Shown: piece by piece, positions 1,193-59,737 of the stretch
Layout of the letters: every line of letters starts with the position of its first letter
Position numbering within the stretch: position 1 is the stretch's first letter
DNA from: a virus
Taxonomy: Duplodnaviria; Caudoviricetes
Strand: one strand, 5' to 3'
IMG/VR virus record: IMGVR_UViG_3300047160_003205
Coordinates: 14,845-78,844 of that record
DNA: 64,000 bases
Program-made: the position numbers and the translations under genes
The notes under the pieces: model-generated
Databases searched by the model: none
The model's input: only the letters and a program-made list of their open reading frames with translations
What the model was told of the DNA's origin: nothing

Positions 1193-4100
1193 CGAGTTCT
1201 CCTAGATACTTGATGGCGGACACTTTGATCATGCGAAAGTCGGGTGGTACAGTGCCCTTTATGGCGTACAAAGACTTCCCCGCACGCGCTTTATCCAACA
1301 TCTTCCGACCGATGCGCTCATAGTCAAACCGTCCGATCTTGCAGAAGATTTCATCCGTATCGTCGCAAAAGTAGGTGTTGAGAACCTGGGTGGGCCCGTT
1401 CAGCTTCCGCCCGTCCCGCTGCGCCAGCTTTTGGGCGTCGTTCTCGTCACGCCACTTAATGCGGCGAGCCATCGCTAAGATCACTACGTTGCCTTCAACT
1501 CCTGGCTGGACCCTCTCAATCGGTAGGATCGGGGTCACTATGTTGAGGGGCGGGGCGGACGTATCTGGGTGTAACCTCCGTATTTGAGCCTTTATGGGGT
1601 AGAGATCATCAATCTCTGTGCGCGCCTCAGTCAGCATTCGCTTAAGGGCTGGCTTGAGCTCGCGTCCGTCCTTACGACTAGCGAGCACTTCAAGAACTTT
1701 CTTCGGCCCAATGCCTTTAATCGCTGTGATGGGGCCGACAAGAACCTGACGTCCATCTTTCTCCGCAATGGACCAACGCTCAGTCGAAGCCTCGGGGTCA
1801 ACTGGGGTGTACGTGATCCCTTCTTTATCAAGCTCTCTAAGTATTGCCAGTTGGTTAGCTGGCTCAGCCTCCGCATCGAGTGTAGCGGCGGCGAACTCCA
1901 GCGGGTAGTGTGCTTTGAGCCAACAGCAGTAGTAGCTGACGAGACCATAAGCGATGGAGTGCGAGTTATGTGTGATAAGTCCATTCTCCAGCGCGAAATT
2001 ATGCTGCTCGGGCATCTCAATATCATAAGTCTCGCGGATACCGGCATCCTCTATCCTTTGGAGCTTCTTAATTGCTTGCTTATAGCCGTTCTCCCATACC
2101 TTAGTCCGGCCGTGGGCATAATGCCGCTTCTTATGGCAACTGTTACAGAGCCAAACTAGGTCTTCAGGTTGGTCCTTACCTGCATTAAAGTCGGTGTGAT
2201 GAGCTTCCATCCGGACTTTGAACTTCCCGCAATCTTCACATGGATCGTCCTGCCTTCGTTCTATGAACTGATCCTTGTAGAAGGCGACCCCGGTTGTCCA
2301 ACCTTTCCCATGTCCCTTTCCCTCTCCAGTAGGTTTATAGCAAGGGATCGGCTCAAACTCGACCGAGGTGAACTCGTCCCCCAAGCCAGCTTCCTTAATA
2401 GGTTTCCACTCGCCACTGATGAGGAAGCGATGCTCGGGCGTACATACGACTTGGCTTCCGTCATCAAATGTGTACCGCTTACAAAGCTTCTTGCCTGATT
2501 TGATGATCCGAACGGCCTTCTGCGGGCGGCCACGATCATCGGGGAACAGGCTGACGAGCCAAGGCTTGGACTTTTGTTGCTTTATCCAACGAGAGGGGGC
2601 TTCCTCATACTTCTCATACAGTTCAGCGATAGTTCTTTCTTGAGTATTGCAGCCTGCTATACTAAGTCTAAGCCTAGTCTCTCCATCTAAACACTTATTG
2701 AACGACCATGAGGCGTATGTACAAATCTGATCCCATATCTCTTTTGCCTTATCTTCTTCAATACCTTGAGATGTCGCTCCTGCTCTAAACTTTATCCAAT
2801 ACTTACCAAAAAATTCATCACCCAATATACCACTCATCGCGTGTCGAATGGCACCCGTATCTTCCCACGAGAACTGACCGATTTCACGAACAATACGTAG
2901 AACTTGCTCTTGATACAGTACAACCCCATAACTATCCTTAGTCAATTCAAGTAATAGCGGGTGTACCTGCGTGATCGGCTCCTCACCCCGCTTCCTCCGA
3001 ACCCAACGCGACGTTCCGCCCGTCGCGAGGGGGCCGGGACGGACGAGGGCCGTCATCGCCGCTACATCCTCAAACCGCGTGAACGTCACCTGGTTCGCGA
3101 CCGAACGCAGGGCGATCCCCGCGAACTGGAAGATGCCGGCGAAGTGTCCGTTATTGAGTACGTCAAATGACGCTTGATCATCGAGAGGAATTTTCTCTAG
3201 GAAGCCATTGGTTGGCTTCTCGCCGATCAACTCTAGGGTGCGCTCAAAGATTGAGAGTTGCTTCAGTCCCAGCGCGTCGATCTTTAAGAGGTTGAGCTCA
3301 GCCGCATCCTTCTTATCACACATGACAGACTTCGACCGCGCGTCCATGGCGACGAAGTCAATGAGGGGGTCTTCAGTGAGAACGACCCCCGCCGCGTGCT
3401 GGGAGGCATTTACAGGGTGTCCTTCGAACTTAGCGGCGATCAGGACCTCAGGATACTCATTCAACAAGGCCTGACCGGCCGCTGTCTCCTTCAGGGTATC
3501 TTCAAGGGTATTATTCGCGCGGCTATCCCCCGAAGTGCGTTCGATAAGGTGGTCCATAAGCTTGTCGGTGCGCCAGATTGGAATTCGTAAAGCTGCGCCT
3601 GCCGCTTTAAGGGCTGATCGTCCCTTGAACATCCCAACCGTTCCGAGCCTCGCCACCCGTTGGCTGCCATACTTTTCCTCCGCATATTGGAACACTAAGT
3701 CCCGGTTGATGTCCGAGAAATCCACATCGATATCAGGTAGCTCAAACCGATTAGCATCAATGAAGCGCTCAAACAGAAGATCGTGCTTGATGGGATCGAT
3801 CTCAGTGATGTTAAGACAGTAGCACACCAGGCTACCACCTGAAGACCCGCGACCAGGCCCAACCACCATCTTGGTCTTCGCCCAATTGACGATGTCGGCG
3901 AGGATGTAGAAGTAGTCATCGAAGTTCTTGTCACTGATGAGCTGTAGCTCGCGCGTCAGGCGCTCCTCATACGTTGGATCAGTGAGGTCTAGTCCTTTCG
4001 TGATAGCGCCATCCTCGCACATCTTCCGCAGGCTTATGGGTTTTTCTGGGACGAGGAGGTGGGCTTTCTTTAGTTGTGCTCGGCAGGCGTCTATCGCCAG

Positions 4101-5569: not shown

Positions 5570-5799
5570 TAGTTTTCGACTTCAGCACTGTATTCGTTAT
5601 CCCCATCCGCCAAATCATAGGTTTCTTCTTCAGGTTCGAAGAAGTCTTCATTCCAGTCTAGGACTTTTTGCCAAAAATCGCACCATTCCCCCACCCCCAG
5701 GTAATTAGGCCGTTTGACAATGCAGTTTTCTATCTCAACATAGTCACGGTATAACTCGATCTGGGCTATCAGACTCATGTTGGTTCCCCGTCTCGTCAA
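5569..5799 (-). CDS. Hypothetical protein
   Basis: 76 aa ORF abutting its neighbours in the operon. Confidence 0.45.
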   Translation of the reverse strand: MTRRGTNMSLIAQIELYRDYVEIENCIVKRPNYLGVGEWCDFWQKVLDWNEDFFEPEEETYDLADGDNEYSAEVEN

Positions 5800-6064
5800 G
5801 GGCTGCTAGGATTGCTGCATAGACGATCAGGTCTTCAATGCTATCAGGGTGGCCACTCGACCAATTAAACATGTATCGGCCGAGTTTAGCGACCATCGTC
5901 GTTAACACATGATAACGAGTGAAGTCCTGAGGGGACCGTAGGCGAACTCCGTTGGGAAAGAAAGTGCTAAGTGCCGCCCCGACACGCTCATAGTTGGCGC
6001 CATAAAGCTGTTCGCGTTCACTAAAGAGTGCTGCGGCAGCACTTAGCTTAGTTGGTGGACTCAT
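5744..6064 (-). CDS. Nucleotide-modification-associated helical protein (MazG/dNTP pyrophosphatase-like)
   Basis: ER...YG..Y...KLGRY...H.DSIEDLIVYAA pattern typical of small phage helical proteins found beside nucleotide-metabolism genes. Confidence 0.55.
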   Translation of the reverse strand: MSPPTKLSAAAALFSEREQLYGANYERVGAALSTFFPNGVRLRSPQDFTRYHVLTTMVAKLGRYMFNWSSGHPDSIEDLIVYAAILAALDETGNQHESDSPDRVIP

Positions 6065-6459
6065 TAGATTGGGCTATTACTTCCACCTGGACCATATGAA
6101 GTCCCGTCTGGATCAATCCACCAGTAAGGGCCATGGTCGCCATCGTTGGTCGGAACACGACGGACTTCATAGTGAATATTCCGAAGAGTGTCCTGACCTA
6201 CGAATTGTCCATTCGGTTCAACAAAACGGACATAACCTTGCCAGTTTTCTTCATCCTCAAGGTCCAGCCCCTTTTGAAGGGCTTTAGCATTAAGGGCGAA
6301 GTGTTCACCCATAGTCTTGCTACGAGTGATCTCAATAATAAGAACTTTCAGCTCTCGATTGTAGATGATTCGATTTGGGAAGTATCGTTTGGTGAAAGCC
6401 TCAGCTTTCGGCATGTACTTCCAGGCTCCCGTAAGGGAGGTCAAATCCTTCTGTCGCAT
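6064..6459 (-). CDS. Hypothetical protein
   Basis: 131 aa, translationally coupled to 5744-6064. Confidence 0.5.
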   Translation of the reverse strand: MRQKDLTSLTGAWKYMPKAEAFTKRYFPNRIIYNRELKVLIIEITRSKTMGEHFALNAKALQKGLDLEDEENWQGYVRFVEPNGQFVGQDTLRNIHYEVRRVPTNDGDHGPYWWIDPDGTSYGPGGSNSPI

Positions 6460-6484
6460 TGCACTCCTCCAGGGTGTCAGAGCT

Positions 6485-6991
6485 TCAGATCAGTTCAACA
6501 CGCTTGATCATCTTCAGATAGACGCCAAGCACCCGGAGAGTACCGTAAATGCGGTAATGGTAGAACCGCTTTCTTTCGATCAGATATGGATTGGTATGGG
6601 CTTCAGTCCACATCTCATAAATGATAGGAAATTCAAAGTCCTCAGGGAACTCCTCGACATGGATACCAATGTGGCTGAGGAAGGAGGGGTTCTTGCGGAA
6701 CCGCTTTTGCCAATAGGGGCTTTCAGACCCAAAGGTAACAATCTCAAGCTCAATGCCTAAATCGTAGTTGAACTCTAACAATGCAGCGACGGACCTGTAT
6801 TCTCTTTTCCGATGAACGGCTCGACCCATTGCTACATCGGTAATCCACTCGGCATGCTCTAAGCCGAACAGTTCCTTCAGCTTCTCCCGCGCGTCCGTAT
6901 CTACTGCATACCAGGCAACCTGATCAACAATCGCTTTTCCGAAGCGACCGATCAAGGGGGTCGCCATTGCTGGGGGAATTTCAGCCGCCAT
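6485..6991 (-). CDS. VOC/glyoxalase-like protein
   Basis: IVDQVAW...IELEIV...FLSHIGIHVE pattern of VOC metal-binding strands. Confidence 0.5.
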   Translation of the reverse strand: MAAEIPPAMATPLIGRFGKAIVDQVAWYAVDTDAREKLKELFGLEHAEWITDVAMGRAVHRKREYRSVAALLEFNYDLGIELEIVTFGSESPYWQKRFRKNPSFLSHIGIHVEEFPEDFEFPIIYEMWTEAHTNPYLIERKRFYHYRIYGTLRVLGVYLKMIKRVELI

Positions 6992-7679
6992 ATGGAATGT
7001 CTAGTCCTGCTAGGTACTTGTGACGTTCCTTCGTACTGAGAAGGAATGCGATGAACTCCGCCAGCACTTCAGGATCAATCTCTTCCCCCGCCTTTAGCGC
7101 GGCCAGTTGGTAGGCTTTCGCTTCTTCCTCGCTCCAGCCGCGCGTCTCCATCACCCGCTTCTCAATGAGACGGCTCATCTCCGTCCCCCTCAGCTTTCCC
7201 GGACTAATGGAGAACGCGGTGATGTTGTGAGTGACCTTAAGCTCACGCGCGAACTGGGCGGTTAGTATCTTGGCCGCGCCCTTACTCGCATTATAGGCCG
7301 CACTCGCAGTCATCGGTACGGTCGCCGCATTCGATACAATGTTAAGCACGGTTCCGCCGCGAAGGTTCTCCAACAGCGCCTTCGTGACAATGAAGATACC
7401 CTTCGCATTGGTATCCATCACCCTGTCCCAGCTATTACTGGAGAGGTCAGGAAGGTAAGCGACCTCATTGACCCCGGCGCAGTTGATGAGCCCGTCCAGT
7501 TCCAACCCTTTCAGGACCGCCGCTTCCTTAGCCACTGCCGCTTCGTCGGTGATATCCAACCCCGGCAGAGACCAATCAAAGATCGTGATCCCATTCGAGT
7601 TGAAGTGGCCAAACATGGCCTGGTAGATCGCCTTTCCCAATCCTGAGGACGCTCCGGTGATGACATAGCTCCTAGACAA
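6981..7679 (-). CDS. Short-chain dehydrogenase/reductase
   Basis: ITGASSGLG, INCAGV, YNASK (YxxxK), ISPG. Confidence 0.92.
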   Translation of the reverse strand: MSRSYVITGASSGLGKAIYQAMFGHFNSNGITIFDWSLPGLDITDEAAVAKEAAVLKGLELDGLINCAGVNEVAYLPDLSSNSWDRVMDTNAKGIFIVTKALLENLRGGTVLNIVSNAATVPMTASAAYNASKGAAKILTAQFARELKVTHNITAFSISPGKLRGTEMSRLIEKRVMETRGWSEEEAKAYQLAALKAGEEIDPEVLAEFIAFLLSTKERHKYLAGLDIPYGG

Positions 7680-8112
7680 GCTCAGGCCTCCGTGCCCTAA
7701 CCAGTAAGGTTGTGATGCCCTCCTCAGCCCAAGCAGCCGCTATCGCCTCATTATCCTCTAGGATCAGGCTGATACGGCGAAGATCACCGCCCATGGAAGT
7801 CCGGGCGATGTCGAGTTTCATGATTGCGGCTGGGCGATAATCGTCATTGCCGCGCATGTATAGCTCGGCGAACTCGACCCCGTGGTGAATCAGCCAAGTA
7901 AGCGTGATCCCCCGGTACTTCTCTGGCCGCCCGGTAAGGCAGATGACATGGTGCCCCGCTCGCGTGAGCGCGTTCACGAGGGCGATCATCTCAGTGATCG
8001 GCTCGTCGTGGACGGACGCTAGGTGGAAGGCGTCCCAGCCATCCTCATCGATCAGCTTCTCCCGGTGAAAGCCTGCGGAAAGGGTGTTGTCTACATCAGC
8101 GACGATTATCAT
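7672..8112 (-). CDS. HAD phosphatase (T4 PNKP phosphatase-like)
   Basis: DVDNTL, LTGRPE, LYMRG.DDYRP, LEDNE. Confidence 0.85.
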   Translation of the reverse strand: MIIVADVDNTLSAGFHREKLIDEDGWDAFHLASVHDEPITEMIALVNALTRAGHHVICLTGRPEKYRGITLTWLIHHGVEFAELYMRGNDDYRPAAIMKLDIARTSMGGDLRRISLILEDNEAIAAAWAEEGITTLLVRARRPELV

Positions 8113-8306
8113 TGGCCTTTGTCGGGTTCATAGAGGGTTCTTACATCAATGTCACGTGCGTATCCTGGATACTTAGAAGCGAATTGAAATCCATACAGGA
8201 AGCCATTCAGGAAGCTTTCCCGATCCAGTCCGGGTAGCTTCTCACGTGCATGATTATATGCATGCGCGATGACGTCTATTGCTTCGTCCTTGAGGATGGT
8301 GCTCAT
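8109..8306 (-). CDS. Hypothetical protein
   Basis: 65 aa with a 4-bp overlap to the next gene. Confidence 0.45.
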   Translation of the reverse strand: MSTILKDEAIDVIAHAYNHAREKLPGLDRESFLNGFLYGFQFASKYPGYARDIDVRTLYEPDKGQ

Positions 8307-9050
8307 TCATGAAGCCTTGATTAGATCAATCGCCTTAGCAATCTTTATCTTGGTCTCATGGTCGAGTGTTAAGGCGACCTCTTCTAGCATCCGTAGCCCC
8401 TTGTCGTACTTGTTCTCGAAAAATTGAGACGACCAAGGCCACACTCGCAACGTCTCCGCTTTCATCTGGCGGACAATATCTACATAAGCCCCTTGAACTC
8501 GGAGTGATTCACGCTTCTGAACCAGCTCCACAAGCGTGCGAAGGTTGTACTTAGCGATCCCATTCGTGTGGATGCCGCCCGGCAAAAGGTCACGGGCATC
8601 CTCTAGTGGCGTACCTCCCGCAACCTCATTTGCATAACAAGCAACGGCTTCTTCCATCGCTCTATCAAACATACCAGGAACGCCATTCCGGGTCGGTTTG
8701 GTCGCCGTCCACTTTGGTGTATCCCACGTCGCCTCGCTCATATCCGTGACGCGCTGGGACTGCATGGCGTAGGAGCCTGTGCGAGTACGGACCAGTTGAA
8801 GGCTCGTGTTTCGGCTCATTCTCTCGATGCAAAACACTAGGTCAACCATCTCCCATGAGGAAGGGATGGTCCCCGCCATGTACTCCATCTCGTCTAATAT
8901 GTTGCTCTCCGGTTCACTGAGCCGGAAAGCCCCCCAATTTCCCGGGGTTAAGCTGAAACGGGTGTTCTTCGTGAAGGCTAGGAGCCGGGCCGCATATAGC
9001 GGGTCGGGGTGCCCTTTGCCGGTGTAGTCGATGAGCGTGACTTTAGGCAT
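8307..9050 (-). CDS. thyX: Flavin-dependent thymidylate synthase-like (ThyX)
   Basis: QLVRTRTGSYAMQSQR (RHR-x7-S motif with H replaced by T), EDARDLLP, NLRTL. Confidence 0.8.
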   Translation of the reverse strand: MPKVTLIDYTGKGHPDPLYAARLLAFTKNTRFSLTPGNWGAFRLSEPESNILDEMEYMAGTIPSSWEMVDLVFCIERMSRNTSLQLVRTRTGSYAMQSQRVTDMSEATWDTPKWTATKPTRNGVPGMFDRAMEEAVACYANEVAGGTPLEDARDLLPGGIHTNGIAKYNLRTLVELVQKRESLRVQGAYVDIVRQMKAETLRVWPWSSQFFENKYDKGLRMLEEVALTLDHETKIKIAKAIDLIKAS

Positions 9051-9369
9051 CGATCTTCTCCGGGGTCTTCACTGGCCCTTCGGGAGCCTTTGTCCACGGC
9101 TTCTTCAGGGACTCCAGGACCTTTTGGAAGTCATCATTCTTACTCAACCGGCGGAAGCGTTCAGCATAATAGCCAATCTCCGGAATCACACCCAGGCTGA
9201 TTTCTTCCAGGTGGACTCCTTTCTCCCGCCCATCCTTTACCACCTTCCTGATCGTGTACTGGGCGTTTAGGATGAGAAAGGAACACATCCACGCTGATGC
9301 TTCCTTGTTCGCTTTTGGGGTGACATCGACGCAAATGACCACGTCACCTTTTCCTAGATCGTCAGACAT
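9043..9369 (-). CDS. Hypothetical protein
   Basis: 108 aa ORF downstream of a TATAAT element. Confidence 0.5.
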   Translation of the reverse strand: MSDDLGKGDVVICVDVTPKANKEASAWMCSFLILNAQYTIRKVVKDGREKGVHLEEISLGVIPEIGYYAERFRRLSKNDDFQKVLESLKKPWTKAPEGPVKTPEKIDA

Positions 9370-9383
9370 TACAATCCTCCGCG

Positions 9384-9398
9384 CCTTTCTTTATTATA
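9384..9398 (-). promoter_or_regulatory. Putative -10 element TATAAT followed by AAAGAAAG
   Basis: Minus strand reads GGGGTATAATAAAGAAAGG in the intergenic gap upstream of 9369. Confidence 0.5.
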
Positions 9399-9424
9399 CC
9401 CCGGATCAACGCTGCTATAGAATG

Positions 9425-10423
9425 CTAAAGAGAGAACGTCCAGCGCTGTCTCACCATATCATAGCGCCCGGCGTCCATCCATCCGGCAATGAGCCTGACG
9501 TCCTGTATGAGGCTATCCAGCAGCAGCCCAGGCCTCGCCGTCGCATAGCGCCCGAGCGAGAACACATTGTGCTTGTCGGTGGCCCAGTGGATGAAGAACC
9601 GCCGGGCGGTCTCTCGCACAGGCAATATCTTCTGGTAAGCTGAATACACCACTACCACTTCGCTCAGGTCTTCGTATTGCATCCCCAACAACTCCATGGC
9701 CTCAGTCGCAAGTTGGACTGCTACGAAGTTCTCTATGAGCTGGACATCTGGCACTTCTACAATGAGCTCATTCCCAGTTACAGTGATGCGAGTGAACCGA
9801 AAGGATGGATCAGGAACCAGGAGGCTGACATACGCCTCGCAATCCTTAATCCGTCCACGAATGTTCACGCCAGGGATATTCCTGAACTTAATATCCTCCT
9901 GATACGGATAATTGAGCGCGGCGGCGAGGGAAGGCATGGGGATCGTACTGATGTAAGGCCCCTCGCCACTGAAGTCGGCTGTGTGGCCAAATTCCAGGGC
10001 TCCACTCAACGGCTCCGCGAGCCTGGCAATGAAATCGGGTGGAGCGATATACCTAGTCTCAGTGACTAGTCCTTCAGTTATACTTCGATCAGACCGGCGA
10101 ATACCAGTGTTCTTGAAACTGTAGGAGAGGCAGTCTGCGATTGGATTGCGCCATGGAAGCGTGCCCTTGATCATGAGGACTTGCTTGAACGGGATACCAG
10201 TGGCATCACCGACCGCCCCCGTCCGGAAGCGGAGGGTGGCGGAGTGATTGTTGGGGAGTTCGGACTGTGATTCGAGGATGGTCGGCTTCCGGCGCAAGAG
10301 CAGGTTCCCTGCTAAGAGCCCTGCCATCCCTGCGCCAATGATTGTTACCATTCCACCCTCCGGAACGACGGCTGGGACATCACGCCCACTTACGGCTTGG
10401 AAGGCTCGGAGAGGACCTAACAA
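9425..10423 (-). CDS. FAD/NAD(P)-binding oxidoreductase (UDP-galactopyranose mutase-like fold)
   Basis: TIIGAGMAG dinucleotide-binding motif; C-terminal NVFSLGRYA. Start probably near MVTIIGAG. Confidence 0.72.
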   Translation of the reverse strand: MLGPLRAFQAVSGRDVPAVVPEGGMVTIIGAGMAGLLAGNLLLRRKPTILESQSELPNNHSATLRFRTGAVGDATGIPFKQVLMIKGTLPWRNPIADCLSYSFKNTGIRRSDRSITEGLVTETRYIAPPDFIARLAEPLSGALEFGHTADFSGEGPYISTIPMPSLAAALNYPYQEDIKFRNIPGVNIRGRIKDCEAYVSLLVPDPSFRFTRITVTGNELIVEVPDVQLIENFVAVQLATEAMELLGMQYEDLSEVVVVYSAYQKILPVRETARRFFIHWATDKHNVFSLGRYATARPGLLLDSLIQDVRLIAGWMDAGRYDMVRQRWTFSL

Positions 10424-27799: not shown

Positions 27800-28111
27800 T
27801 TACTCGGAAATAACGCGCCAGCGCCGCCGCCGCTCTTCAGGGGTTAGGACTGGGCGGTCGTTCGCTTTGAACTCGTCCGCGATCCCGAGCTTCGCAGTAA
27901 TGTCCGCGAAGCGAGCGAGCGCATCCTGGTGTTCGGGCGAAGCCTTAGCTCGCATTTGGTCGATAACATCCTCGTCCTCGTCTGGGTCGAGCCCCTCGAT
28001 TCTGTCGAAGAAGTCTTCGAAGTTCTCGGCAGTCCAGCCTTCGAACCGACTGTCTGCCTCGTAGGCGTCGAGCAGATCGGCTAGTTCGGGAAGCATTTGT
28101 TCGGGTCGCAT
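27800..28111 (-). CDS. Acidic hypothetical early protein
   Basis: RBS AGCGGAGAA; first gene after the TATACT promoter at 28139-28144. Confidence 0.65.
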   Translation of the reverse strand: MRPEQMLPELADLLDAYEADSRFEGWTAENFEDFFDRIEGLDPDEDEDVIDQMRAKASPEHQDALARFADITAKLGIADEFKANDRPVLTPEERRRRWRVISE

Positions 28112-28138
28112 TCTGTTTTCTCCGCTAGAGACGCCCCT

Positions 28139-28180
28139 AGTATAGCTTCGAGACAGCTGTAGCGTCTATGTCTTTCTTTA
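28139..28180 (-). promoter_or_regulatory. Leftward early promoter
   Basis: Minus strand AAAGAAAG-aca-TAGACG-N18-TATACT; same architecture as the plus-strand promoter at 39618-39657. Confidence 0.6.
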
Positions 28181-28193
28181 TCCCAGATACATA

Positions 28194-28449
28194 CACAAAT
28201 TTGGGCGCTTATACAGATACCCATCCAAATTTGGGGCCTGATACAAACACAAATTCTCGTATGTATACGGATGGTATAGTACACACAAATTTGGGCTGTG
28301 TACGGATTACCACACAAATTTGGATTAATGTAAAGCTTTATTAGATGTTAGCTTTATTCATATACGTCCACAAATTTGGTGAGCTAACGTTGTCTATGCC
28401 GGAATTCAGGCACAATGGTGACGCTTAGGCCACAAATTCCACACAAATT
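28194..28449 (+). repeat. CACAAATT(TGG) repeats (8 copies) in an AT-rich non-coding region
   Basis: Copies at 28194, 28226 (CAAATTTGG only), 28248, 28284, 28313, 28369, 28431, 28442. Core CAAATTTG is palindromic. Confidence 0.85.
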
Positions 28450-28561
28450 ACAACAACTTAGCTGACCTGGCTAGGCAATAGTGTCCCGTGGCTAGGTTTG
28501 TTCTTTCGTCCGTATAAGGACTACGGCTCAGCTGTCCCTGGACACTCGCAGATGGGCCCAG

Positions 28562-28611
28562 ACAATCCATCTGCTGACATACAATCCATCTGTTAAAGGA
28601 CAATCCATCTG
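28562..28611 (+). repeat. ACAATCCATCTG x3, 19-bp period
   Basis: Exact copies at 28562, 28581, 28600. Confidence 0.9.
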
Positions 28612-29072
28612 TGTGCCCCGCAGAGCCAGAGGACAGCGGCAGAGGACAGCGAACAGCTGTCTCTGAGCTCTGTCCGCCCCACCAGCGCCCACCAGGCAGG
28701 GCACAGCCGACAGCGCCCATCGGACATGCAGGCAGAGGCCATGCAGACACTAGTACAGTGCAATGCAAGATACCCAGACCCGATCCAGCGCTCAGCCGCG
28801 ACGATCGGTCGCGGTTCACAGGGGCGCGGCGGATCGTCGCGGAACGAAAGGGGAACGAGTATAGACGCCGAGTATTCGTCGCGAATACTTAGGCGAATAC
28901 TTCGAAGGGGGGCGCGGCGAAACGTCGCGGGCCTAGCTCCGCTATAGGGCTTCTCCCCTTCGCCTAGCTCGGCTATATCGGGGGTCCGGTCCGGTCGGAT
29001 CGGGGCTCGGGCCGCTCGGCCCGGGCGGAACGGCTCCCGAAGGGGAGCCCTAGCTAGGTAGGAGAGACCCCT

Positions 29073-29789
29073 ATTTCCGTCTATTCGAACGTCCCCCGCT
29101 ATCCCTTCTCCGGTTTCCGGGGAACCCTCTTCGCCGCCGTTCTCGCGAGCCCGGGCCGCTTCGTCCCGGTCCCGGAAGCGGTCGGGCGCGGCTTTAACGC
29201 GACGACGGCCGCGAAGAAAATTAACCTCCGCTTCGCCCGCGACGCGGCTCCCTTCGAAATCCGGACGCTCGGCCCGGCGAAGGCTCCGACCGAGGTCGGG
29301 CTCTTCGTCGTCGGGGCTATCGGCGAAGGCCGCGTCTCCCGCGATAGCCGCTCGGGCGAGCGGCGAACCGCCGCTAACGACGGCGCCGAAAACTTCGGGA
29401 AGGAACGGATCGTCCCGACGCTCGTCCGCTTCGCCGAGAAGCGCGAGGCCGTTTTCGCCGCTCGCGGCGAACGGATCGAAGCGGCTAAGGCCGTTCTCGC
29501 CGAAGAGGAGGCCGAGGCCGCTCCGGAGGCCGCGCCGCTCGCGCCCGAGGCCGCGCCCGAGGCCGCGCCCGCGCCCGAGGCCGAGGCCGAGGCCGCGCCC
29601 GAGGCCGCGCCCGAGGCCGCGCCCGACGCGCCCGACGCGCCCGAGGCCCCGACCGAGGCCGAGGCCGCGCCCGAGGCTCCCGCGCCCGAGGCCGCTCCGG
29701 AGGCCGAACCGACCGAGGCCGAGGCCGCGCCCGACGCGCCCGAGGCCCCGACCGAGGCCGAGGCCGCGCGCCCGCGTCGCCGCCGCTAA
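29073..29789 (+). CDS. ATT-initiated protein (238 aa): wHTH-like domain, acidic EAAP-repeat tail, RPRRRR end
   Basis: TAGGAGAGAC-N4-ATT; open to TAA 29787-29789; motif spacing shared with ORF 13-450. Absent from the ORF track. Confidence 0.8.
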   Translation: MSVYSNVPRYPFSGFRGTLFAAVLASPGRFVPVPEAVGRGFNATTAAKKINLRFARDAAPFEIRTLGPAKAPTEVGLFVVGAIGEGRVSRDSRSGERRTAANDGAENFGKERIVPTLVRFAEKREAVFAARGERIEAAKAVLAEEEAEAAPEAAPLAPEAAPEAAPAPEAEAEAAPEAAPEAAPDAPDAPEAPTEAEAAPEAPAPEAAPEAEPTEAEAAPDAPEAPTEAEAARPRRRR

Positions 29790-29794
29790 CCCTT

Positions 29795-29820
29795 TCGGGG
29801 GAGGCTCCGGCCTCCCCCGA
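29795..29820 (+). other. Perfect 11-bp hairpin between the two island genes
   Basis: TCGGGGGAGGC-TCCG-GCCTCCCCCGA; no T-tract on either side. Confidence 0.75.
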
Positions 29821-29852
29821 CCCCTTCCCTCGCTCCGATAGGAGAGACGACG

Positions 29853-30044
29853 ATTAAGACGCTCCCGACCCCGACCCCGGAAGCCGCCGCCTTCCGCCTT
29901 CTCGCCCGCCGCGCCGCCTTCGAAGCGGCCCGGCTCCGCGCCGCCGAAACCGGGCGCGCTACCGTCGCGGCGATTTACGCGCCGCGCGGGTTTCGCTCCC
30001 TCGGCGAAGGCGGGTTCCGCGCCTCGCCGGATTACTTCGACTAG
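29853..30044 (+). CDS. ATT-initiated protein (63 aa), Ala/Arg-rich
   Basis: Identical TAGGAGAGAC-N4-ATT context; MKTLPTPTPEAAAFRLLARRAAFEAARLRAAETG...SPDYFD. Confidence 0.7.
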   Translation: MKTLPTPTPEAAAFRLLARRAAFEAARLRAAETGRATVAAIYAPRGFRSLGEGGFRASPDYFD

Positions 30045-30050
30045 CCGCGC

Positions 30051-30122
30051 GCTATACTTCGCGGGCCGGGCGAATACTTCGCTACGGCCCGCGAATACTT
30101 CGCCGACCGCCGCGAATACTTC
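30051..30122 (+). repeat. GCGAATACTTC direct repeats, 21-bp period
   Basis: Exact copies at 30070, 30091, 30112 and a partial copy ending at 30060. Related copies at 28881 and 28893. Confidence 0.9.
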
Positions 30123-30256
30123 ACACACACACCCGGGGGCACGCTTCGCTCCACCACACTGCTTTCCAATGTCGTGAACCTTTGCTGTACACACGGCGCC
30201 ATAGAGCCACACAGTCCCGGAGGATGTAACCCACATTGATGCGGAATTGTACAACT

Positions 30257-30603
30257 TAACCATACCACACCCAACCTCACCCGACCAAGGAGGACCGAAC
30301 CCGACCAAACCCGACCAAACCCCACCTGACCACGTTGTGCCACACCAATCCAAACCTTGCCTCACCGTCCCTTACCAGCAGCAGACCAGACCGTACCTTG
30401 CCACAGCAGGGATTCACCGCACCTTACCACACCGAACCTCACAATAGCATACCTGACCGTACCCGAACAGACCAGACCCCGCCACACCTAATCTTATCAT
30501 ACCACACCTCGCCCAATCAGACCGTGCCGTACCATACCCGATTTTACCAAACCTGACCAGACCACGCCGCATCGGACCAAGCCCGACCACAGGATACCCT
30601 GCC
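30257..30603 (-). ncRNA. GGY-NN pentamer array, candidate guide RNA (VIPR-like)
   Basis: 67 pentamers in three phased blocks (38+5+24), 53 starting GGT/GGC. Begins at the first base after the RAMP gene stop codon. Confidence 0.8.
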
Positions 30604-31233
30604 TTAAGGTTGCGATAGCTCCCACTTAACCACTACGAAGCGTCCGAAGGTTGGCCGCATGTCCCCAAGCCCGACCAAGCGCCCCGCGTCGTCAATCACG
30701 CGCCGAAGAAACACTGGATCGATGTAATCTGACAGTTGCACCATGAACTGGAAGTCTGCTCGCCAGCCAGCCTTGATAGCTGGCCGTGTTCGGGTAACGG
30801 CACCCCGTTGCACCATTGCCCGTCGCCGGTCCTCGTAGTCCCACTTCGTGATTCCCAGCGAGGAGAGGTCATTCAAGCTGATTATGCCAGCACGGAACAG
30901 GTCCATTGCCGACTTTCTGGGCGACCTGGGGTCCTGTTGGAACTTGCTGGCATTGATTATGGAACCTCGCAGGTACTCCCCAGGAATAGAGATTTCCATA
31001 TCAGCATTGCGATAGACATAGGACTCCAAATTGTCAACCTTCTTGGCCTTCGACCCTTTTGGGGCCTTGGCCTTTGCCTCGACCTCATCCGTATTGTAGC
31101 GGTGAAACAACATTGGAGATGACCCCTCTAAGGTCATATCAACAATGTAGGGGACGCTCGCCTGAATAACGGGTTCGCCCCCATTGGAGGCTTGCTCCTC
31201 GGCTAGGTTAAGCAATTTGTCTCGGTTCAACAT
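30604..31233 (-). CDS. Solitary Cas7/RAMP-like protein (Vipr-like)
   Basis: IVDMTLEGSSPMLFH (RRM beta1), ISIPGEYLRGSII (like IPGSSLKG), C-terminal Gly loop GRLVGLGDMRPTFGRF. Start MLNRDK with RBS GAAGGGGG; alternative start 31269. Confidence 0.75.
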   Translation of the reverse strand: MLNRDKLLNLAEEQASNGGEPVIQASVPYIVDMTLEGSSPMLFHRYNTDEVEAKAKAPKGSKAKKVDNLESYVYRNADMEISIPGEYLRGSIINASKFQQDPRSPRKSAMDLFRAGIISLNDLSSLGITKWDYEDRRRAMVQRGAVTRTRPAIKAGWRADFQFMVQLSDYIDPVFLRRVIDDAGRLVGLGDMRPTFGRFVVVKWELSQP

Positions 31234-31272
31234 CGCCCCCTTCATTGGTTGTTGGTCCTTCCTCCCCAAACA

Positions 31273-33165: not shown

Positions 33166-33397
33166 GGATCCAGCTATCAGCGACCATCCGCATGAAAAAG
33201 CTTATGGAGAGACGTAGCTTGTGGGCGGCGTCCCGCACAGCGACAAACTCTCCGGGTGGGAAGTAGACACTAACTGCCACTGTCCTATCCTTCCCGGCCT
33301 CCAGTTTTCGCTGGAGTGCCTCTTGTCCAAGACTCCGCCGATTGTAGGGACGTTTCATCTCCGTTACGCTCCGTCCCCCTAGTCTAGTTGAAAACAA
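33149..33397 (-). CDS. Ribbon-helix-helix-like protein
   Basis: VSVYFPPGEFVAVRDAAHKLRLSISFFMR. Confidence 0.45.
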   Translation of the reverse strand: MFSTRLGGRSVTEMKRPYNRRSLGQEALQRKLEAGKDRTVAVSVYFPPGEFVAVRDAAHKLRLSISFFMRMVADSWIRDHAK

Positions 33398-35112
33398 AAA
33401 GAAAGTCGATGACCCGAGGAATTGTCGCGTGGCCTACATGGGGAAACACGAACTTTGTTGGCCAGTACCAGGCCGAGGAGTGGCCTGAGCCCCCGGAAGA
33501 CTGGGAGGCTACCCCGCAGCACGACCCGGAAGCTTTCAATGGCAGTGACCTTCCTCCCGAGAGCGACGCAATTCTGGCGGATGACACGGAGGAGGTGTAC
33601 CATCCCGGTCTTCACTCCTACGAGGGCGACAAGGGCTACGAGGACCCCGCTGAACTGACGGTCCTGAAGAGACGGCACGGGCCACTGAATGTGACGGCTC
33701 CTCAGCCGGGTCCCCAGATGAGGTTCCTGACGACGGCGGCTGACATCGCCATCTATGGCGGGGCGGCGGGCGGCGGGAAGACATGGGCGCTGTTGTTCGA
33801 GGCGTCCCGGCACATTAAGAACCCCTACTATGGCGCCGTCATCTTCCGCCGTACCAGTGTGCAAGTCCGGAATGAGGGTGGCCTGTGGGATGAATCTCTC
33901 CGCATGTACCCCGGCCTGGGCGGGGCTCCCCGCGAGCATGACCTTTGGTGGAAGTTCCCGTCCGGGTCCAATATCTCCTTCGCCCACCTGGAGCACGATA
34001 AGAATGCTCACGACTATCAGGGGGCACAGATCCCACTGATCGCCTTCGATGAGCTGACACACTTCACGGAAGCCCAGTTCTGGTACATGGTTAGCCGGAA
34101 CCGCTCCACATGTGGGGTGAAACCCTACATCCGTGCTACGTGCAACCCTGACGTTGACAGCTGGGTGGCAAAGTTTATTTCCTGGTGGATAAACCAGGAC
34201 ACTGGCTATGCTTACCCGGAGCGTGCGGGAAAGCTTCGGTACTTTGTCCGCATTGGTGATAAGCTCCACTGGGCATCTGACCCTAAAGCTCTGTCCCGCT
34301 TCCGCAATCCAGTAGACGGGAAGCCCATCAAGCCCAAGTCTGCCACCTTCATCCCGTCTAAGCTCACCGACAACAAGGTCCTGACCGAGTCCGACCCGGG
34401 GTATATGGCGAACCTGTTGGCGCTCCCTCTCGTGGAGAGGGAGCGGTTGCTGAATGGTAACTGGAAGATACGGTGGACGGGTCAACAATTCTTCAATGTC
34501 CAGAACCTACTCGTGAACGGGAGGCCGGTGGCGAACCCCACCAATACGGACAGTGTCTTCGCTGTACTCGACACAGCAAGTAAGACTGGTCATCAACACG
34601 ATGGCACGGCTGTCGTCTGGGTTGCGAAGAACAAGTACACTGGATATCCGCTGACGATACTGGATTGGGAGACGCTGCAGATCAGCGGGAACCTGTTGGA
34701 GAAGTGGTTGCCGTCCGTTTTTATACATGGTGAGAGACTGGCTCGTCGTTACGGCGCACGCGAAGGGTTCGTGGGTGCTTGGATTGAGGACAAGCAATCC
34801 GGAACCATTCTCCTTCAACAGGCACGTCGGCGGAACTTCAACGTCTTCCCGATTGAATCCAAGCTGACCCTCTTGGGCAAGGACGAACGCGCACTGAGTG
34901 TGAGTGGGTATGTTGGAACGGGGAAGGTCAAGGTAGCTGAAACCGCCTTCAATAAGACCCTCACCTATAAGGACATAACGCGGAATCATTTTCTCTCCCA
35001 GGTTGAAAGTTTCTCTATTGCCGACCCGGACAATAAGTCCCGGGCCGATGATTTGCTCGATTGCTTCTGCTACGCTGTCGCTATCGGCCTCGGCGATTGG
35101 GAAGGGTTCTGA
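33388..35112 (+). CDS. terL: Terminase large subunit
   Basis: YGGAAGGGKT (Walker A), FDELTHF (Walker B), RATCNP, DTASK, DDLLD nuclease motifs; acidic N-terminal extension. Confidence 0.93.
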   Translation: MKTKRKSMTRGIVAWPTWGNTNFVGQYQAEEWPEPPEDWEATPQHDPEAFNGSDLPPESDAILADDTEEVYHPGLHSYEGDKGYEDPAELTVLKRRHGPLNVTAPQPGPQMRFLTTAADIAIYGGAAGGGKTWALLFEASRHIKNPYYGAVIFRRTSVQVRNEGGLWDESLRMYPGLGGAPREHDLWWKFPSGSNISFAHLEHDKNAHDYQGAQIPLIAFDELTHFTEAQFWYMVSRNRSTCGVKPYIRATCNPDVDSWVAKFISWWINQDTGYAYPERAGKLRYFVRIGDKLHWASDPKALSRFRNPVDGKPIKPKSATFIPSKLTDNKVLTESDPGYMANLLALPLVERERLLNGNWKIRWTGQQFFNVQNLLVNGRPVANPTNTDSVFAVLDTASKTGHQHDGTAVVWVAKNKYTGYPLTILDWETLQISGNLLEKWLPSVFIHGERLARRYGAREGFVGAWIEDKQSGTILLQQARRRNFNVFPIESKLTLLGKDERALSVSGYVGTGKVKVAETAFNKTLTYKDITRNHFLSQVESFSIADPDNKSRADDLLDCFCYAVAIGLGDWEGF

Positions 35113-35901: not shown

Positions 35902-36936
35902 TTAGTCGTCATAAGCCCTCTCCTCCCGCGCTTTTGCCCGCTCACGCGCAGCTTTCTGCTTAAGGGCCACGGACTTCATATGCTGCCGCCGCCGCTCGCG
36001 CTCCTCATCAGTGATCTTCATCCTCCAACCAATGGGGTGTAAGCGGCCCACCCTGTGTGTGGATTGAATATCGGGGAGCGGCCCGAGGTCGGTGGGAATG
36101 TCGGGCGTCGTCCCCAGAGGGATGGGTAGCCCCTTCCCCCGCGCGTATTCATACCGCCCTCTATTCTGCGCCTTTAGCATTTCCTCATTTGTCAGTGCCC
36201 GGGGCTTCCGTCCCCGTTTCGCTGGATTGTTCACTCGTTGATACCCCCGGTAGTTCAGTGACAGGTTCTTCGGCAACATTATCCTGTAGCGACGCACGCA
36301 CAACACCAGGACCTGGCGGATGCGCTCACGCGACACGCCGTGAACCTCCCCGGTCGCTTTCAGCGTCTCCAGCCGGATGTAGTCCCGCACGATATTCGCC
36401 CAGTACTCGGGCATGGACGGATAGATCGCGGCATTGTGCTCCTCGATCTCACGCGCCCGCGCCTTCTCCGCGTCATGCGCGAACCACACCTTCGCTTCCT
36501 CTTCCAACCGCGCTTCCTCCGCTTCCCTTTTATCCAGTGCCCTGATGTCGTCCGCCTTCAGTGTCGCCTCCGCCATCACTTCCGGGTCCGTCAACCAGAA
36601 CTTACTGACCGTGATCGGGTTCACGCCGCCGTACTTGTCGTACACATGGGATGCGACCCGGCCCGCGAGGATTTCGCTCACCACTGCGACCTTAAAGGCG
36701 TGTGGATACCTGGAGGGATACTTTGGCGCGCCCCATGCCGCCGCCCGCTCGCGGCGGCGCGCGTGCCCCAGCTTGCGGTCCTCGCGGGTGAAGCGGACCC
36801 TGTAGATTTTGGCGGCGGACTCCAGCTGTTTCACCCGGAAGCCCAGGGCTTTCGCGATGTCGATGCGGCTCACCCCTTCGGCGGCCAGCTTCCTGAGAAG
36901 CTTCTGCTTCTCGTCCGTCCAAATCCGCCTGCCCAT
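35902..36936 (-). CDS. Regulator with GcrA-like N-terminal HTH and sigma70 region-4-like HTH
   Basis: WTDEKQKLLRKLAAEGVSRIDIAKALG; TLKATGEVHGVSRERIRQVL. Confidence 0.65.
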   Translation of the reverse strand: MGRRIWTDEKQKLLRKLAAEGVSRIDIAKALGFRVKQLESAAKIYRVRFTREDRKLGHARRRERAAAWGAPKYPSRYPHAFKVAVVSEILAGRVASHVYDKYGGVNPITVSKFWLTDPEVMAEATLKADDIRALDKREAEEARLEEEAKVWFAHDAEKARAREIEEHNAAIYPSMPEYWANIVRDYIRLETLKATGEVHGVSRERIRQVLVLCVRRYRIMLPKNLSLNYRGYQRVNNPAKRGRKPRALTNEEMLKAQNRGRYEYARGKGLPIPLGTTPDIPTDLGPLPDIQSTHRVGRLHPIGWRMKITDEERERRRQHMKSVALKQKAARERAKAREERAYDD

Positions 36937-57652: not shown

Positions 57653-59053
57653 ATGGGAGTTATTGAAGAGCTTCGGAAGCCCAATGAGGCTGAGATTATC
57701 AGCATTCTCGGCAAATACGCCGAGACGCTACGCCAAGAGCATCGGTACGACACTTCCATCATTGCTGTAAAACGCGCCCTAAAGCTTGAACCTGAACACC
57801 CCGGTCTATGGGGCTCATTGGGCTGTTCCTATTGGCATTATGGAAAGTTTGAAGCCGCCTTGGAGCCATTGCTTAAGGCAGTGGAAGGAGCGCCTGAGGA
57901 ATGTTGTCATGTCGGCAACTTAGGGCTTCTTTACCATTCCTTGCGTGATTATGAGAAAGCTGAGGCTTGCTTTATTAAAGCAATGGCTCTCGCTAAGAAG
58001 AGTCGCAAGAAGGCGGCTCGGGTTGATTACTTGGGGGTCGTCTGGGACCTGGCTCTAATGCGCCTAGAGATAGGGGATTGGGAGCGCGGGCTCCAGGGCT
58101 ATGAGAGTAGGATTGAATTGAAAGCGGCCGGGCTTTACCCCAAAATGCCAGTTCCGATATGGCAGGGTGAGCCCCTGGACGGAAAGACGCTGTATTTACA
58201 GGCTGAACAGGGGTTGGGGGATCGCATCCTGTTTAGCCGATACCTTCAGCTTATCAAGGATCGCTGGCCCACCTGCACCATTAAGGGTTGCTTCAATGAG
58301 GCCCTCGCGGACTTGTTCTGGGAATACCGCGTACTGACCGAGATGTTGCCGCACGGCATCCCTTGGCCTGATGACATCGACTATGGCGTCTATCAAGCCT
58401 CCCTCCCTTACTTGTTGGGGACGCGGGTAGACACGATCCCGCTAGATCCAGGATATATCTACAAGCGTGTCAAGCGGCAGTATGACCTGGGAGGTCTCAA
58501 TCTTCCCTATCCCCGCCTGCCCTCCCTTAAAGTGGGTATCGCCTGGACAGGGAATCCAGGGCAGGCCAAGAATCACCTCCGAACAATCCCATTCGAAAAG
58601 ATGCTAACATTGGCAGAGAATGTCAATGTTACTCTTTACAGTTTCCAGGTTGGTTCTGGATCTGAGGCTATAAAGAAGGCGAATGCTGAAGAATTAGTGG
58701 TAGATATGGGAGCCACCCTGGAACGGGAGGGGTTTGTCGCGGCGGGCGTAGCAATGTTGGAGATGGATCTCATCGTCACCGTATGCACCTCTACTGCGCA
58801 TCTCGCCGGAAGCTTGGGAATTCCAACCTGGCTGCTTTTGAGCTGGGACCCTTATTGGATCTGGCTTAATCAAGGGGACACCACCCCTTGGTATCCCAGC
58901 ATTCGTATCTTTCGCCAAGACCGCCCTGGTGACTGGGATAGTGTCATGAATAAGGTGCTGGCGGAACTCCCATCTTTAATTGTGACACCTTTAACTGCCG
59001 ATAAGGTGGACCCCGGTACTTTTTACCCCACCTTAGAACGGCTGGCGAGTTAA
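57653..59053 (+). CDS. TPR-repeat glycosyltransferase (GT9-like C-terminus)
   Basis: Three or four TPRs, then EQGLGDRILFSRY, GIAWTGNP, DLIVTVCTS.AHLAG.LG.PTWLL...W.W. Confidence 0.9.
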   Translation: MGVIEELRKPNEAEIISILGKYAETLRQEHRYDTSIIAVKRALKLEPEHPGLWGSLGCSYWHYGKFEAALEPLLKAVEGAPEECCHVGNLGLLYHSLRDYEKAEACFIKAMALAKKSRKKAARVDYLGVVWDLALMRLEIGDWERGLQGYESRIELKAAGLYPKMPVPIWQGEPLDGKTLYLQAEQGLGDRILFSRYLQLIKDRWPTCTIKGCFNEALADLFWEYRVLTEMLPHGIPWPDDIDYGVYQASLPYLLGTRVDTIPLDPGYIYKRVKRQYDLGGLNLPYPRLPSLKVGIAWTGNPGQAKNHLRTIPFEKMLTLAENVNVTLYSFQVGSGSEAIKKANAEELVVDMGATLEREGFVAAGVAMLEMDLIVTVCTSTAHLAGSLGIPTWLLLSWDPYWIWLNQGDTTPWYPSIRIFRQDRPGDWDSVMNKVLAELPSLIVTPLTADKVDPGTFYPTLERLAS

Positions 59054-59065
59054 GGAGCAAATCTA

Positions 59066-59737
59066 GTGGCTAACCAAGCAGTCGCTACCTATCCCGGTCG
59101 CTCCCTGATTTGGGGCCGGATGAAGGGCCTGATGACTGAGGCGAAGAACATTGGCTGGGGGACTTCTTCGACAACCGCCTCAACCTATTCAAACGTCAAC
59201 CTGTTTCAGCCAGCAACTGAACCTCGGGTGGCGGGAACTTCGTCTTATGCTTCTCCCGCTTTTGCCCAGTTAGGGGACACTTACCAGGTCACTGGATCGA
59301 TCACTTGTTCGACCGGCGCGAAGACTATCACGGAAGTAGGGTTGTTTGATACGACCACCTCTTCCACTTCCACCACCATTTCGAACTCGCTGGCAGTCGG
59401 TACGACCGTTATCACCTTTGGCGTCAACCCAGGGCCCACCGTCTCCAACTATTATATCCAGGTCCTGAACGAGACGATGCTGGTGTCGGGAGCGAACTCG
59501 ACCACCCTTACCGTCGTCCGAGGGCAGCTTGGGTCGGCGGCTGGTACTCAGGCCTCGGGTTCTCCCGCGACGATTGGTGGCGATGGCGGGGCTTTCGCGA
59601 ATGGTGGTCTGGGTGGTCAGAATGCCACTGTGGGTGCGGCCCAGGGTGGGGATATGTTTATCCACGCCGACTTCGCGGGTGTCGCGCTCAATGTGAATGA
59701 CTCGATTTCGTTCACCATCACTGACACGCTGACCTAA
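59066..59737 (+). CDS. Tail-collar/fibre-attachment-like structural protein
   Basis: IGWGT...EPRVAGT...DTYQVTG..T...TITEVGLFD...DF..VALN.NDSISFT. Confidence 0.55.
   Translation: MANQAVATYPGRSLIWGRMKGLMTEAKNIGWGTSSTTASTYSNVNLFQPATEPRVAGTSSYASPAFAQLGDTYQVTGSITCSTGAKTITEVGLFDTTTSSTSTTISNSLAVGTTVITFGVNPGPTVSNYYIQVLNETMLVSGANSTTLTVVRGQLGSAAGTQASGSPATIGGDGGAFANGGLGGQNATVGAAQGGDMFIHADFAGVALNVNDSISFTITDTLT

Follow-up and report, generated by a model that had tools for sequence, protein, structure and literature searches.

A TG/CA-free island with two putative ATT-started genes in an uncultured phage

Translation initiation at AUU is already known in bacteria. In Escherichia coli, infC and pcnB start with AUU behind a Shine-Dalgarno sequence; decoding by the initiator tRNA is established for infC, and both are presumably read in this way, as we propose below for a phage. 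The AUU codon of infC is a regulatory device for the autoregulation of IF3. Here, we analyzed 64,000 nucleotides (positions 14,845 to 78,844, hereafter the window) of the virus record IMGVR_UViG_3300047160_003205, which are part of a 78,844-bp uncultured phage contig with a GC content of 55.5%. The window contains an island of 1301 nt that has neither TG nor CA, and two open reading frames in this island, ORF1 and ORF2, appear to start with ATT. In contrast to infC, AUU in this phage (and AUC in a related contig, L007) would be forced by a TG ban across the whole cassette, because the ban excludes every NTG codon.

Chemical marks at the T of TG are known from the phages M6, ViI and phiW-14, which hypermodify thymidine at TG/TC by the 5-HMUDK pathway, and from the NTG-preferring T-dioxygenase 5mYOX176. 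The hypermodification of T at TG and TC in M6 has been published (PMC6449724), and so has a phage T-dioxygenase that prefers NTG (PMC13229309). Pbunavirus and Wifcevirus have already been described as distant relatives (PMC11990801). TG/CA-free islands were not described in the literature that we searched.

Both strands of the island are free of TG and CA, compared with about 129 occurrences expected from its base composition. Over the whole genome the two dinucleotides have a frequency of 0.12 per position and the next-longest gap between them in the 78.8 kb is 59 nt; the absence is local and stands against a normal background. The GC content of the island is 73%, against 55% for the genome, and CG and TA, which are the transition neighbours of TG and CA, are both enriched (observed/expected 1.45 and 1.53). 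An absolute ban of this kind, which removes the ATG start codon and five amino acids, is new. Among 50,697 phage records, no DNA or protein match to the island was found.

The preliminary description of this DNA had proposed two hidden genes behind one shared ribosome-binding context, and its coordinates and sequence statements on that context all hold. We found TAGGAGAGAC-N4-ATT exactly twice in the window (29059-29075 and 29839-29855), and AGGAGAGAC-N4-ATT had no match in 100 dinucleotide-preserving shuffles. The products of 238 and 63 amino acids had been said to lack Met, Trp, Cys, His and Gln, which is confirmed: none of the five occurs among the 299 internal residues of the two ORFs, compared with 29.7 expected from the phage proteome (P(0) = 2.6 × 10−14). 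Apart from the missing CA, the binding context of both ORFs is similar to CTAGCGGAGAA(A)CAnnATG, which is found at the neighbouring early genes. No alternative in-frame ATN exists for ORF1 from the upstream stop to codon 50, and the ATA that is found five codons upstream of ORF2 falls within the Shine-Dalgarno sequence.

The strongest support for the ATT starts comes from the homologues of ORF1. Contig L007 carries an ordinary ATG gene (P0003, 230 amino acids, 60% identical to ORF1) and a fourth copy of the family, which lies on the minus strand inside a 777-nt TG/CA-free island and is uncalled in the public record. The 850-nt contig L008 encodes P0004 (188 amino acids, 51% identical to ORF1); its island of at least 827 nt has a single TG, that of the start ATG, and ends right after a T-run terminator. 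P0006 (239 amino acids) is located on contig L009, in an island barring only HCA/TGD. The first codon is ATT in this phage (N-terminus ISVYSNVPRYPFSGFR), ATC in the L007 island copy (ISTFSKLPANPFSGYR) and ATG in both the L008 copy (MTTLSNIPSFPFSGFR) and the non-island paralogue of L007 (MPVIAYTGPDYPFSGFR). These four N-termini align residue by residue, with the start codon at position 1 in each and an AGGAG-type ribosome-binding site before it; the AUU of ORF1 stands at the start position of its orthologues, behind a Shine-Dalgarno sequence. AGGAG was found 5-8 nt upstream of the first codon in this phage, in the L007 island copy and in L008. The gene of L009 starts with ATG-C.

On this alignment, ATG seems to give way to ATT or ATC as the start codon precisely where the TG ban turns absolute, and we infer translation from AUU. 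ORF1 orthologues without the ban, or under the relaxed ban, use ATG, unlike a regulatory AUU of the infC type. The orthologous series ATT, ATC, ATG and ATG-C, which appears to track the strictness of the ban, is new, and so is the apparent HCA/TGD variant of the rule. No tRNA genes were found in the phage, so there is no special initiator tRNA; both genes would start at AUU, 7 nt after a strong AGGAG, and would be read by the normal initiator tRNA. A constraint at the DNA level can override the start-codon rule, with the start chosen at one position following the strictness of the TG ban.

ORF length is no evidence for genes in this island, because TGA is impossible there and the GC content is 73%. 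All six frames contain long open stretches, including a 590-aa minus-strand ORF. We investigated the codon composition and found that in the frames of ORF1 and ORF2 the frequency of G at codon position 1 is 0.47, the GC minimum is at position 2, and GC at third codon positions is 0.82-0.84. A codon model was trained on the N-terminal part of ORF1 and two homologous island genes from other contigs. It gave +25.9 bits for the ORF2 frame (top of six) and +46.1 bits for the untrained tail of ORF1, and the leader, the intergenic spacer and the 3' region were near zero or negative. The 590-aa ORF was rejected as a gene, since it runs antisense to ORF1 and ORF2, in the frame whose third codon positions coincide with theirs, and always scores second; gene callers would nevertheless prefer it over the two. 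None of the three ORFs belongs to a Pfam or PHROG family.

ORF1 is almost certainly a real gene, and its reading as an ATT-started gene is strongly supported by the coding signature, by homologues with 51-60% identity and by the aligned ATT, ATC, ATG and ATG starts. The ATT start of ORF2, proposed on the same grounds in the preliminary description, is less firmly supported. ORF2 has the same binding context and the best of the six frames, but the related loci and a large protein collection hold no homologue of it, which weighs against the proposal; on balance it is probably a gene. With Met at the start, the proposed N-termini are Met-Ser-Val-Tyr... for ORF1 and Met-Lys-Thr-Leu... for ORF2. 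The uncalled island gene of L007 is in line with the earlier statement that both ORFs are missed by standard gene callers. Genes that start with ATT or ATC are probably invisible to such callers, hence to protein databases, and word-free islands may hide early genes in many phages.

To what extent the ban acts on synonymous positions was estimated by resampling codons according to the phage codon usage. For ORF1, 56 TG/CA were expected with a minimum of 35 in 5000 trials, and for ORF2 13.7 were expected with a minimum of 4; the observed number is 0 in each. Codon junctions follow the same rule: C, the commonest third base, precedes an A-starting codon in 0/28 cases in ORF1, and T precedes a G-starting codon in 0/131. 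These counts show strong selection acting on the nucleic acid, because synonymous sites and codon junctions both obey the ban. The earlier claim of strong DNA-level selection is borne out by these two kinds of avoidance and by the conservative replacements of W by F or Y and of M by I, V or L. In the alignment, W, M and Q of the non-island paralogue correspond in the island copies to F/Y/L, I/V/L and R/F/A, respectively.

The same substitutions bear on a mutational origin, in which local hypermutation (CA to CG, TG to CG) would have produced the island and the ORFs would be decaying or untranslated remnants. The enrichment of CG and TA and the rise in GC content from 55% to 73% would accord with this origin. 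However, hypermutation predicts that W, M and Q become R, T and R, and the pattern in the alignment rules it out. In addition, 51 residues are invariant across four proteins, three independent islands keep an intact AGGAG at the proper distance, hairpins mark the sharp edges of the island, and a T-to-C change cannot convert ATG into ATT or ATC. We consider this origin extremely improbable. The purging of spurious start codons was also rejected as a cause, since the true ATG has been purged as well.

Selection could instead act at the RNA level, if transcripts avoid UG and CA in order to escape an endoribonuclease (a host toxin or a phage shutoff RNase) or an RNA-binding repressor. A precedent is known in the ACA-specific RNases of the MazF type and in mRNAs engineered to lack ACA. 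The island also coincides with a hairpin-bounded unit consisting of a leader, genes and 3' hairpins, and the L008 island ends at a terminator as described above. However, TG and CA are reverse complements and both are absent from one strand, as a reader of double-stranded DNA predicts; an RNA-level cause would require either that both strands are transcribed or that the reader has two specificities unrelated to each other. Strand symmetry holds for the relaxed rule of L009 as well (HCA with TGD), and the genome-wide palindrome asymmetry reported below is a signal at the DNA level. Avoidance by transcripts is therefore improbable, and we give it little weight.

The relatives indicate what kind of reader may be involved. 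Over 1261 nt of L009 there is no HCA or TGD (the next-longest gap is 41 nt), all 51 remaining CA/TG steps (51/51) are G-CA, and GCA/TGC is at or above its normal level. The constraint is conserved in the islands of L007, L008 and L009 and is maintained by selection. The difference of one flanking base between the rules of relatives (NCA against HCA) argues for a protein with a recognition sequence. For the same reason, DNA stiffness or another physical property was rejected as the cause. Primase sites, Chi, Cas12c-type TG protospacer-adjacent motifs and DNA phosphorothioate motifs were also considered as causes, and no supporting evidence was found for any of them.

Kinship offers a further clue. 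The gene at 9425-10423 encodes an amine-oxidase-like flavoprotein of 332 aa that is specific to phages; its relatives among cultured phages are found in Pbunavirus (291 records) and Wifcevirus, with an identity of only about 33%. A common gene order of flavoprotein, ThyX-like protein, PNKP/HAD, SDR, DnaQ, DnaE and SNF2 helicase exists in all three, and the order of the module is conserved in Wifcevirus WFC and Pbunavirus PB1. Because of this shared order, we regard the phage as a distant member of a supergroup with Pbunavirus and Wifcevirus; this apparent link, drawn from gene order, is new. The ThyX of the module is very divergent (E = 0.03 to solved ThyX). The flavoprotein-ThyX-PNKP-SDR module is a candidate pathway for nucleotide or DNA modification.

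Wifcevirus also has a CA/TG-poor block, at the right end of WFC, where the depletion is 3-6-fold. It resembles the island in the banned step, the CG enrichment, the small genes and the conservation among relatives. However, the ban of Wifcevirus is leaky, with about 36 steps per kb left and with ATG, promoters and G-CA kept (ATG accounts for 37/63 and G-CA for 29/63 of the residual steps, and there is no TCA[A/C/G]), whereas here it is absolute, no step being left in 1301 nt, at the expense of the ATG start codons.

Next to this kinship, we examined the avoidance of 6-bp palindromes, counting as avoided those with observed/expected < 0.5, given a maximal-order Markov expectation of at least 4 and with the island masked (Fisher p). 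None of the 15 palindromes with TG/CA is avoided in this phage, against 18/44 without TG/CA (p = 0.0025). WFC (0/15 against 10/32, p = 0.019) and PB1 (contigs L014 and L015; 0/15 against 13/40, p = 0.0115) gave the same picture. M6, with T hypermodified at TG/TC, served as the positive control (2/10 against 23/28, p = 0.0009), and the unmodified phages phiKMV of Pseudomonas aeruginosa (5/13 against 20/31, p = 0.18) and T7 of E. coli (7/15 against 17/31, p = 0.75) were included for calibration. The two unmodified phages avoid palindromes of both kinds and lack the asymmetry; in phiKMV, CAGCTG, CTGCAG and GTGCAC are entirely absent. The supergroup seems to behave like a phage with chemically protected TG, which fits a TG-directed mark. 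A genomic test calibrated in this way, which points to possible TG-directed protection in the supergroup, is new. It would imply protection so far unrecognised in Pbunavirus and Wifcevirus, including therapeutic Pseudomonas phages.

Published work reported that Wifcevirus phages resist restriction systems, EcoCFT_II among them, with the exception of EcoP1_I, despite equally many sites for these two. The EcoP1_I site AGACC has no TG/CA. The EcoCFT_II site, which we take to be CACAG, contains CA, and the site counts in WFC fit this assignment. If true, TG-directed protection would explain this restriction resistance, for which no protection is known. Pbunavirus and Wifcevirus are cultured, so the idea is directly testable.

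Several observations weigh against a mark of this kind. A six-frame search found no Tet_JBP or ParB_N, and Pfam and PHROG searches among about 45 proteins, which had no dedicated 5-HMUDK profile, revealed no known hypermodification family, dUMP hydroxymethylase and aGPT-Pplase included. Only the divergent ThyX, HAD/PNKP, SDR and flavoprotein were found, and no solved flavoenzyme, PaMx11 gp47 among them, matches the flavoprotein in sequence. Of the 4-bp palindromes, CATG and TGCA occur less often than expected in this genome (observed/expected 0.69 and 0.73). Wifcevirus phages also resist EcoRI, despite 38 GAATTC sites that contain no TG/CA. The three asymmetric lineages are kin and do not make three independent tests. 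PB1 lacks a TG/CA-poor island although it carries the module and shows the palindrome asymmetry; because of this case, the mark alone does not require an island. Finally, no sigma-70 promoter was found inside the island, and one of the sigma-70 type is impossible there. The likeness to M6, ViI, phiW-14 and 5mYOX176 has corresponding limits: the M6 palindrome asymmetry is like that found here, but the 5-HMUDK-pathway enzymes of M6, ViI and phiW-14 were not found, and the 50 kb of M6 that we examined contain no TG/CA-free island of this kind.

Thus, we only tentatively attribute the ban to a TG-directed mark of the phage's own, at somewhat less than an even chance. A more specific version, in which the flavoprotein/ThyX/PNKP/SDR module makes an undescribed covalent modification of TG (TGD in some lineages) and the early cassette alone enters unmarked, is possible but rather doubtful.

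A further explanation accepts the genes and their ATT starts as real and takes the ban as defence evasion. The first-exposed DNA would need it before the protection of the phage works, since removal of TG and CA strips the recognition sites of host nucleases or systems dependent on a protospacer-adjacent motif. Like the island, the first-step-transfer (pre-early) region of T5 is a separate block of genes, probably early ones, on which a special constraint acts; we know of no dinucleotide ban described for it. Restriction pressure on this genome is heavy, with ten 6-bp palindromes nearly absent (CCGCGG 0 against 27.7 expected, CGATCG 2 against 24.5, CTCGAG 0 against 14.5, among others). The island has no CCGCGG either (0 against 6 expected), like the rest of the genome, and the depletion at the right end of WFC is in line with evasion as well. 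However, the rest of the genome avoids 0/15 of the TG/CA palindromes, which are thus harmless or already protected and give no motive, and no set of restriction sites is nearly as broad as a ban of two or three letters. The 97-bp end repeat of the contig interrupts a gene and is only an assembly overlap, because the contig is cut inside that gene (circular assembly), and headful packaging is suggested by an Sf6-type small terminase. Evasion at first exposure seems unlikely to us.

Returning to a TG-directed mark, the proposed sequence of events can be outlined as follows. Phages of the supergroup would put a protective chemical mark on their DNA at TG, and the cassette would be kept free of the target word, hence remain ordinary unmarked DNA. 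Its transcription or binding by host proteins could then precede that of the rest of the genome or be independent of it. The ban would result from a reader of TG/CA (of TGD/HCA in one relative) that exerts selection on the nucleic acid. The island itself would be a self-contained cassette of a leader, two binding sites, two genes, hairpins and palindromic operator-like sites, in which ORF2 would be a small basic protein beside ORF1. If the mark is real, escape from it costs this phage, as the extreme case, the ATG start codon along with five amino acids. Taken as a whole, a TG/CA-free cassette with AUU-started genes, under selection on its nucleic acid and escaping a TG mark, is the best explanation that we have, and we consider it reasonably likely.

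Table 1. Positions in the window of the island, its genes and associated features.
Feature	Position	Strand	Description
TG/CA-free island	28821-30121, 1301 nt	both	zero TG/CA
ORF1	29073-29789	+	ATT start, 238 aa, TAA stop
ORF1 ribosome-binding context	29059-29072	+	TAGGAGAGAC-CCCT
ORF2	29853-30044	+	ATT start, 63 aa, TAG stop, basic (pI 10.7)
ORF2 ribosome-binding context	29839-29852	+	TAGGAGAGAC-GACG
Hairpin after ORF1	29795-29820	+	GC-rich, 11-bp stem, no U-run; -26.7 kcal/mol, z = -3.55
Hairpin across left island edge	28796-28842	+	-37.3 kcal/mol, z = -5.5; loop carries last CACA
Hairpin region, right island edge	30070-30122	+	three GCGAATACTTC 21 nt apart; -38 kcal/mol, z = -3.8
Two copies of palindromic GCGAATACTTC(GC)	28881-28903	+	inverted copy upstream at ~28868; candidate operator sites
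GCGAATACTTCGC palindromes			candidate ORF1 target sites, with ACAATCCATCTG repeats and CACAAATTTGG iterons
Left flank	28517-28820	+	41 TG/CA per 200 nt, mostly CA on + strand
AT-rich control region	28190-28460	.	~8 iterons CACAAATTTGG, read by eye; motif also in L007
Flavoprotein module	5744-10423	minus	flavoprotein, divergent ThyX, HAD/PNKP phosphatase, SDR, small unknown proteins; adjoins DnaQ, DnaE

The sharp edges of the island coincide with strong hairpins (Table 1). The densest TG/CA DNA of the genome adjoins it on both sides, with 41 and 35-37 per 200 nt compared with a genome mean of 24.2 (standard deviation 5.1), and (CA)5CCC lies directly 3' of its end. The left flank includes three copies of ACAATCCATCTG, a repeat that also flanks the L007 island, and 5/7 genome copies of GAATACTT are located at the two island edges. 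A single promoter-like site was found upstream, at 28539-28566. No T-run intrinsic terminator was found inside the island, and an Rfam scan of 28000-31000 gave no match.

The ORF1 protein consists of an N-domain with pI 10.2 and an acidic Ala/Glu/Pro tail with pI 4.05 that ends in RPRRRR. An AF2 model built from 4 sequences has a pLDDT of about 80 for residues 1-80, with H-S-H-S-S topology. The best structural matches, at a middling VIA Z of 6.6 (rmsd 2.8 Å over 72 residues), are OmpR/PhoB-type effector and ScpB winged helices, with BaeR, PrrA, GlnR and ScpB at the top; Foldseek found nothing significant for the model (E 0.5 or worse). In a profile search, the ORF1 domain was fused to other modules in a few proteins, and one of these partners matched the uracil-DNA glycosylase superfamily weakly. 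The gene adjoins candidate sites, namely about eight CACAAATTTGG iterons, three ACAATCCATCTG and five palindromic GCGAATACTTC(GC) motifs, the last almost confined to the two island edges. ORF1 is a putative winged-helix-like DNA-binding protein, according to the model, and would probably act as an early regulator or as the origin protein of the adjacent iteron region. Its likeness to OmpR/PhoB- and ScpB-type winged helices and to iteron-binding Rep lies in the predicted fold of residues 1-80 and the neighbouring iterons. It differs from them in belonging to none of these sequence families, in having a single domain, and in its long acidic low-complexity tail with RRRR.

The N-domain of the family comprises about 140 amino acids, including the 51 invariant residues mentioned above. 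The acidic Ala/Glu/Pro tail varies in length and terminates in RRRR, except in the L007 island copy, which ends in PRKGR. The two L007 paralogues (3208-3900 and, on the minus strand, 1648-2148) are divergent around the same iteron region; one is the ATG gene with a long acidic tail and the other is the ATC-started island copy with a short tail. Both the ACAATCCATCTG repeats and the CACAAATTTGG iterons recur in L007. Contig L008, an ENA contig, is almost exactly the island, since it starts inside it and ends 23 nt past it; this extent could be due to flanking DNA that assembles or sequences poorly, or just to low coverage.

Pattern scans of IMG/VR, JGI metagenome contigs and GTDB genomes revealed no further member of the ORF1 family. 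Searches with the small terminase and the primase returned only L007 or no match, and the fetched parts of the large-terminase relatives L001-L006 contain no word-free island. The distant ORF1 homologues P0007 and P0011 are on contigs shorter than 1 kb and are uninformative on context.

In the PB1 record, about 900 nt at 58593-59510 (L015 8593-9510), behind the primase gene and its terminator, carry no annotation. A lone plus-strand gene between terminators follows this gap, and by synteny an island would be expected here. The TG/CA density is only mildly low (13 per 200 nt).

The region at 30257-30603 on the minus strand abuts the right island edge after (CA)5CCC. It is an uninterrupted run of about 67 pentamers in which ACC (on the minus strand, GGT) keeps a fixed phase, and has a GC skew of -0.44, a strong strand asymmetry. 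The 221-aa gene upstream of it (30604-31269) matched only PHROG 4652, whose function is unassigned. A 344-aa protein is encoded on the minus strand at 35902-36936, with an N-terminal GcrA-like segment and helix-turn-helix/sigma-70 region 4-like motifs. GcrA, a regulator of Alphaproteobacteria, senses methylated DNA, and this protein may therefore point to the host or to a transcription factor of the phage. The large terminase (33388-35112) is 60-68% identical to terminases of Rhizobium and Methanoculleus viruses only over residues 101-370, and its full-length relatives are about 29% identical, which indicates that the gene is a mosaic or carries an insertion.

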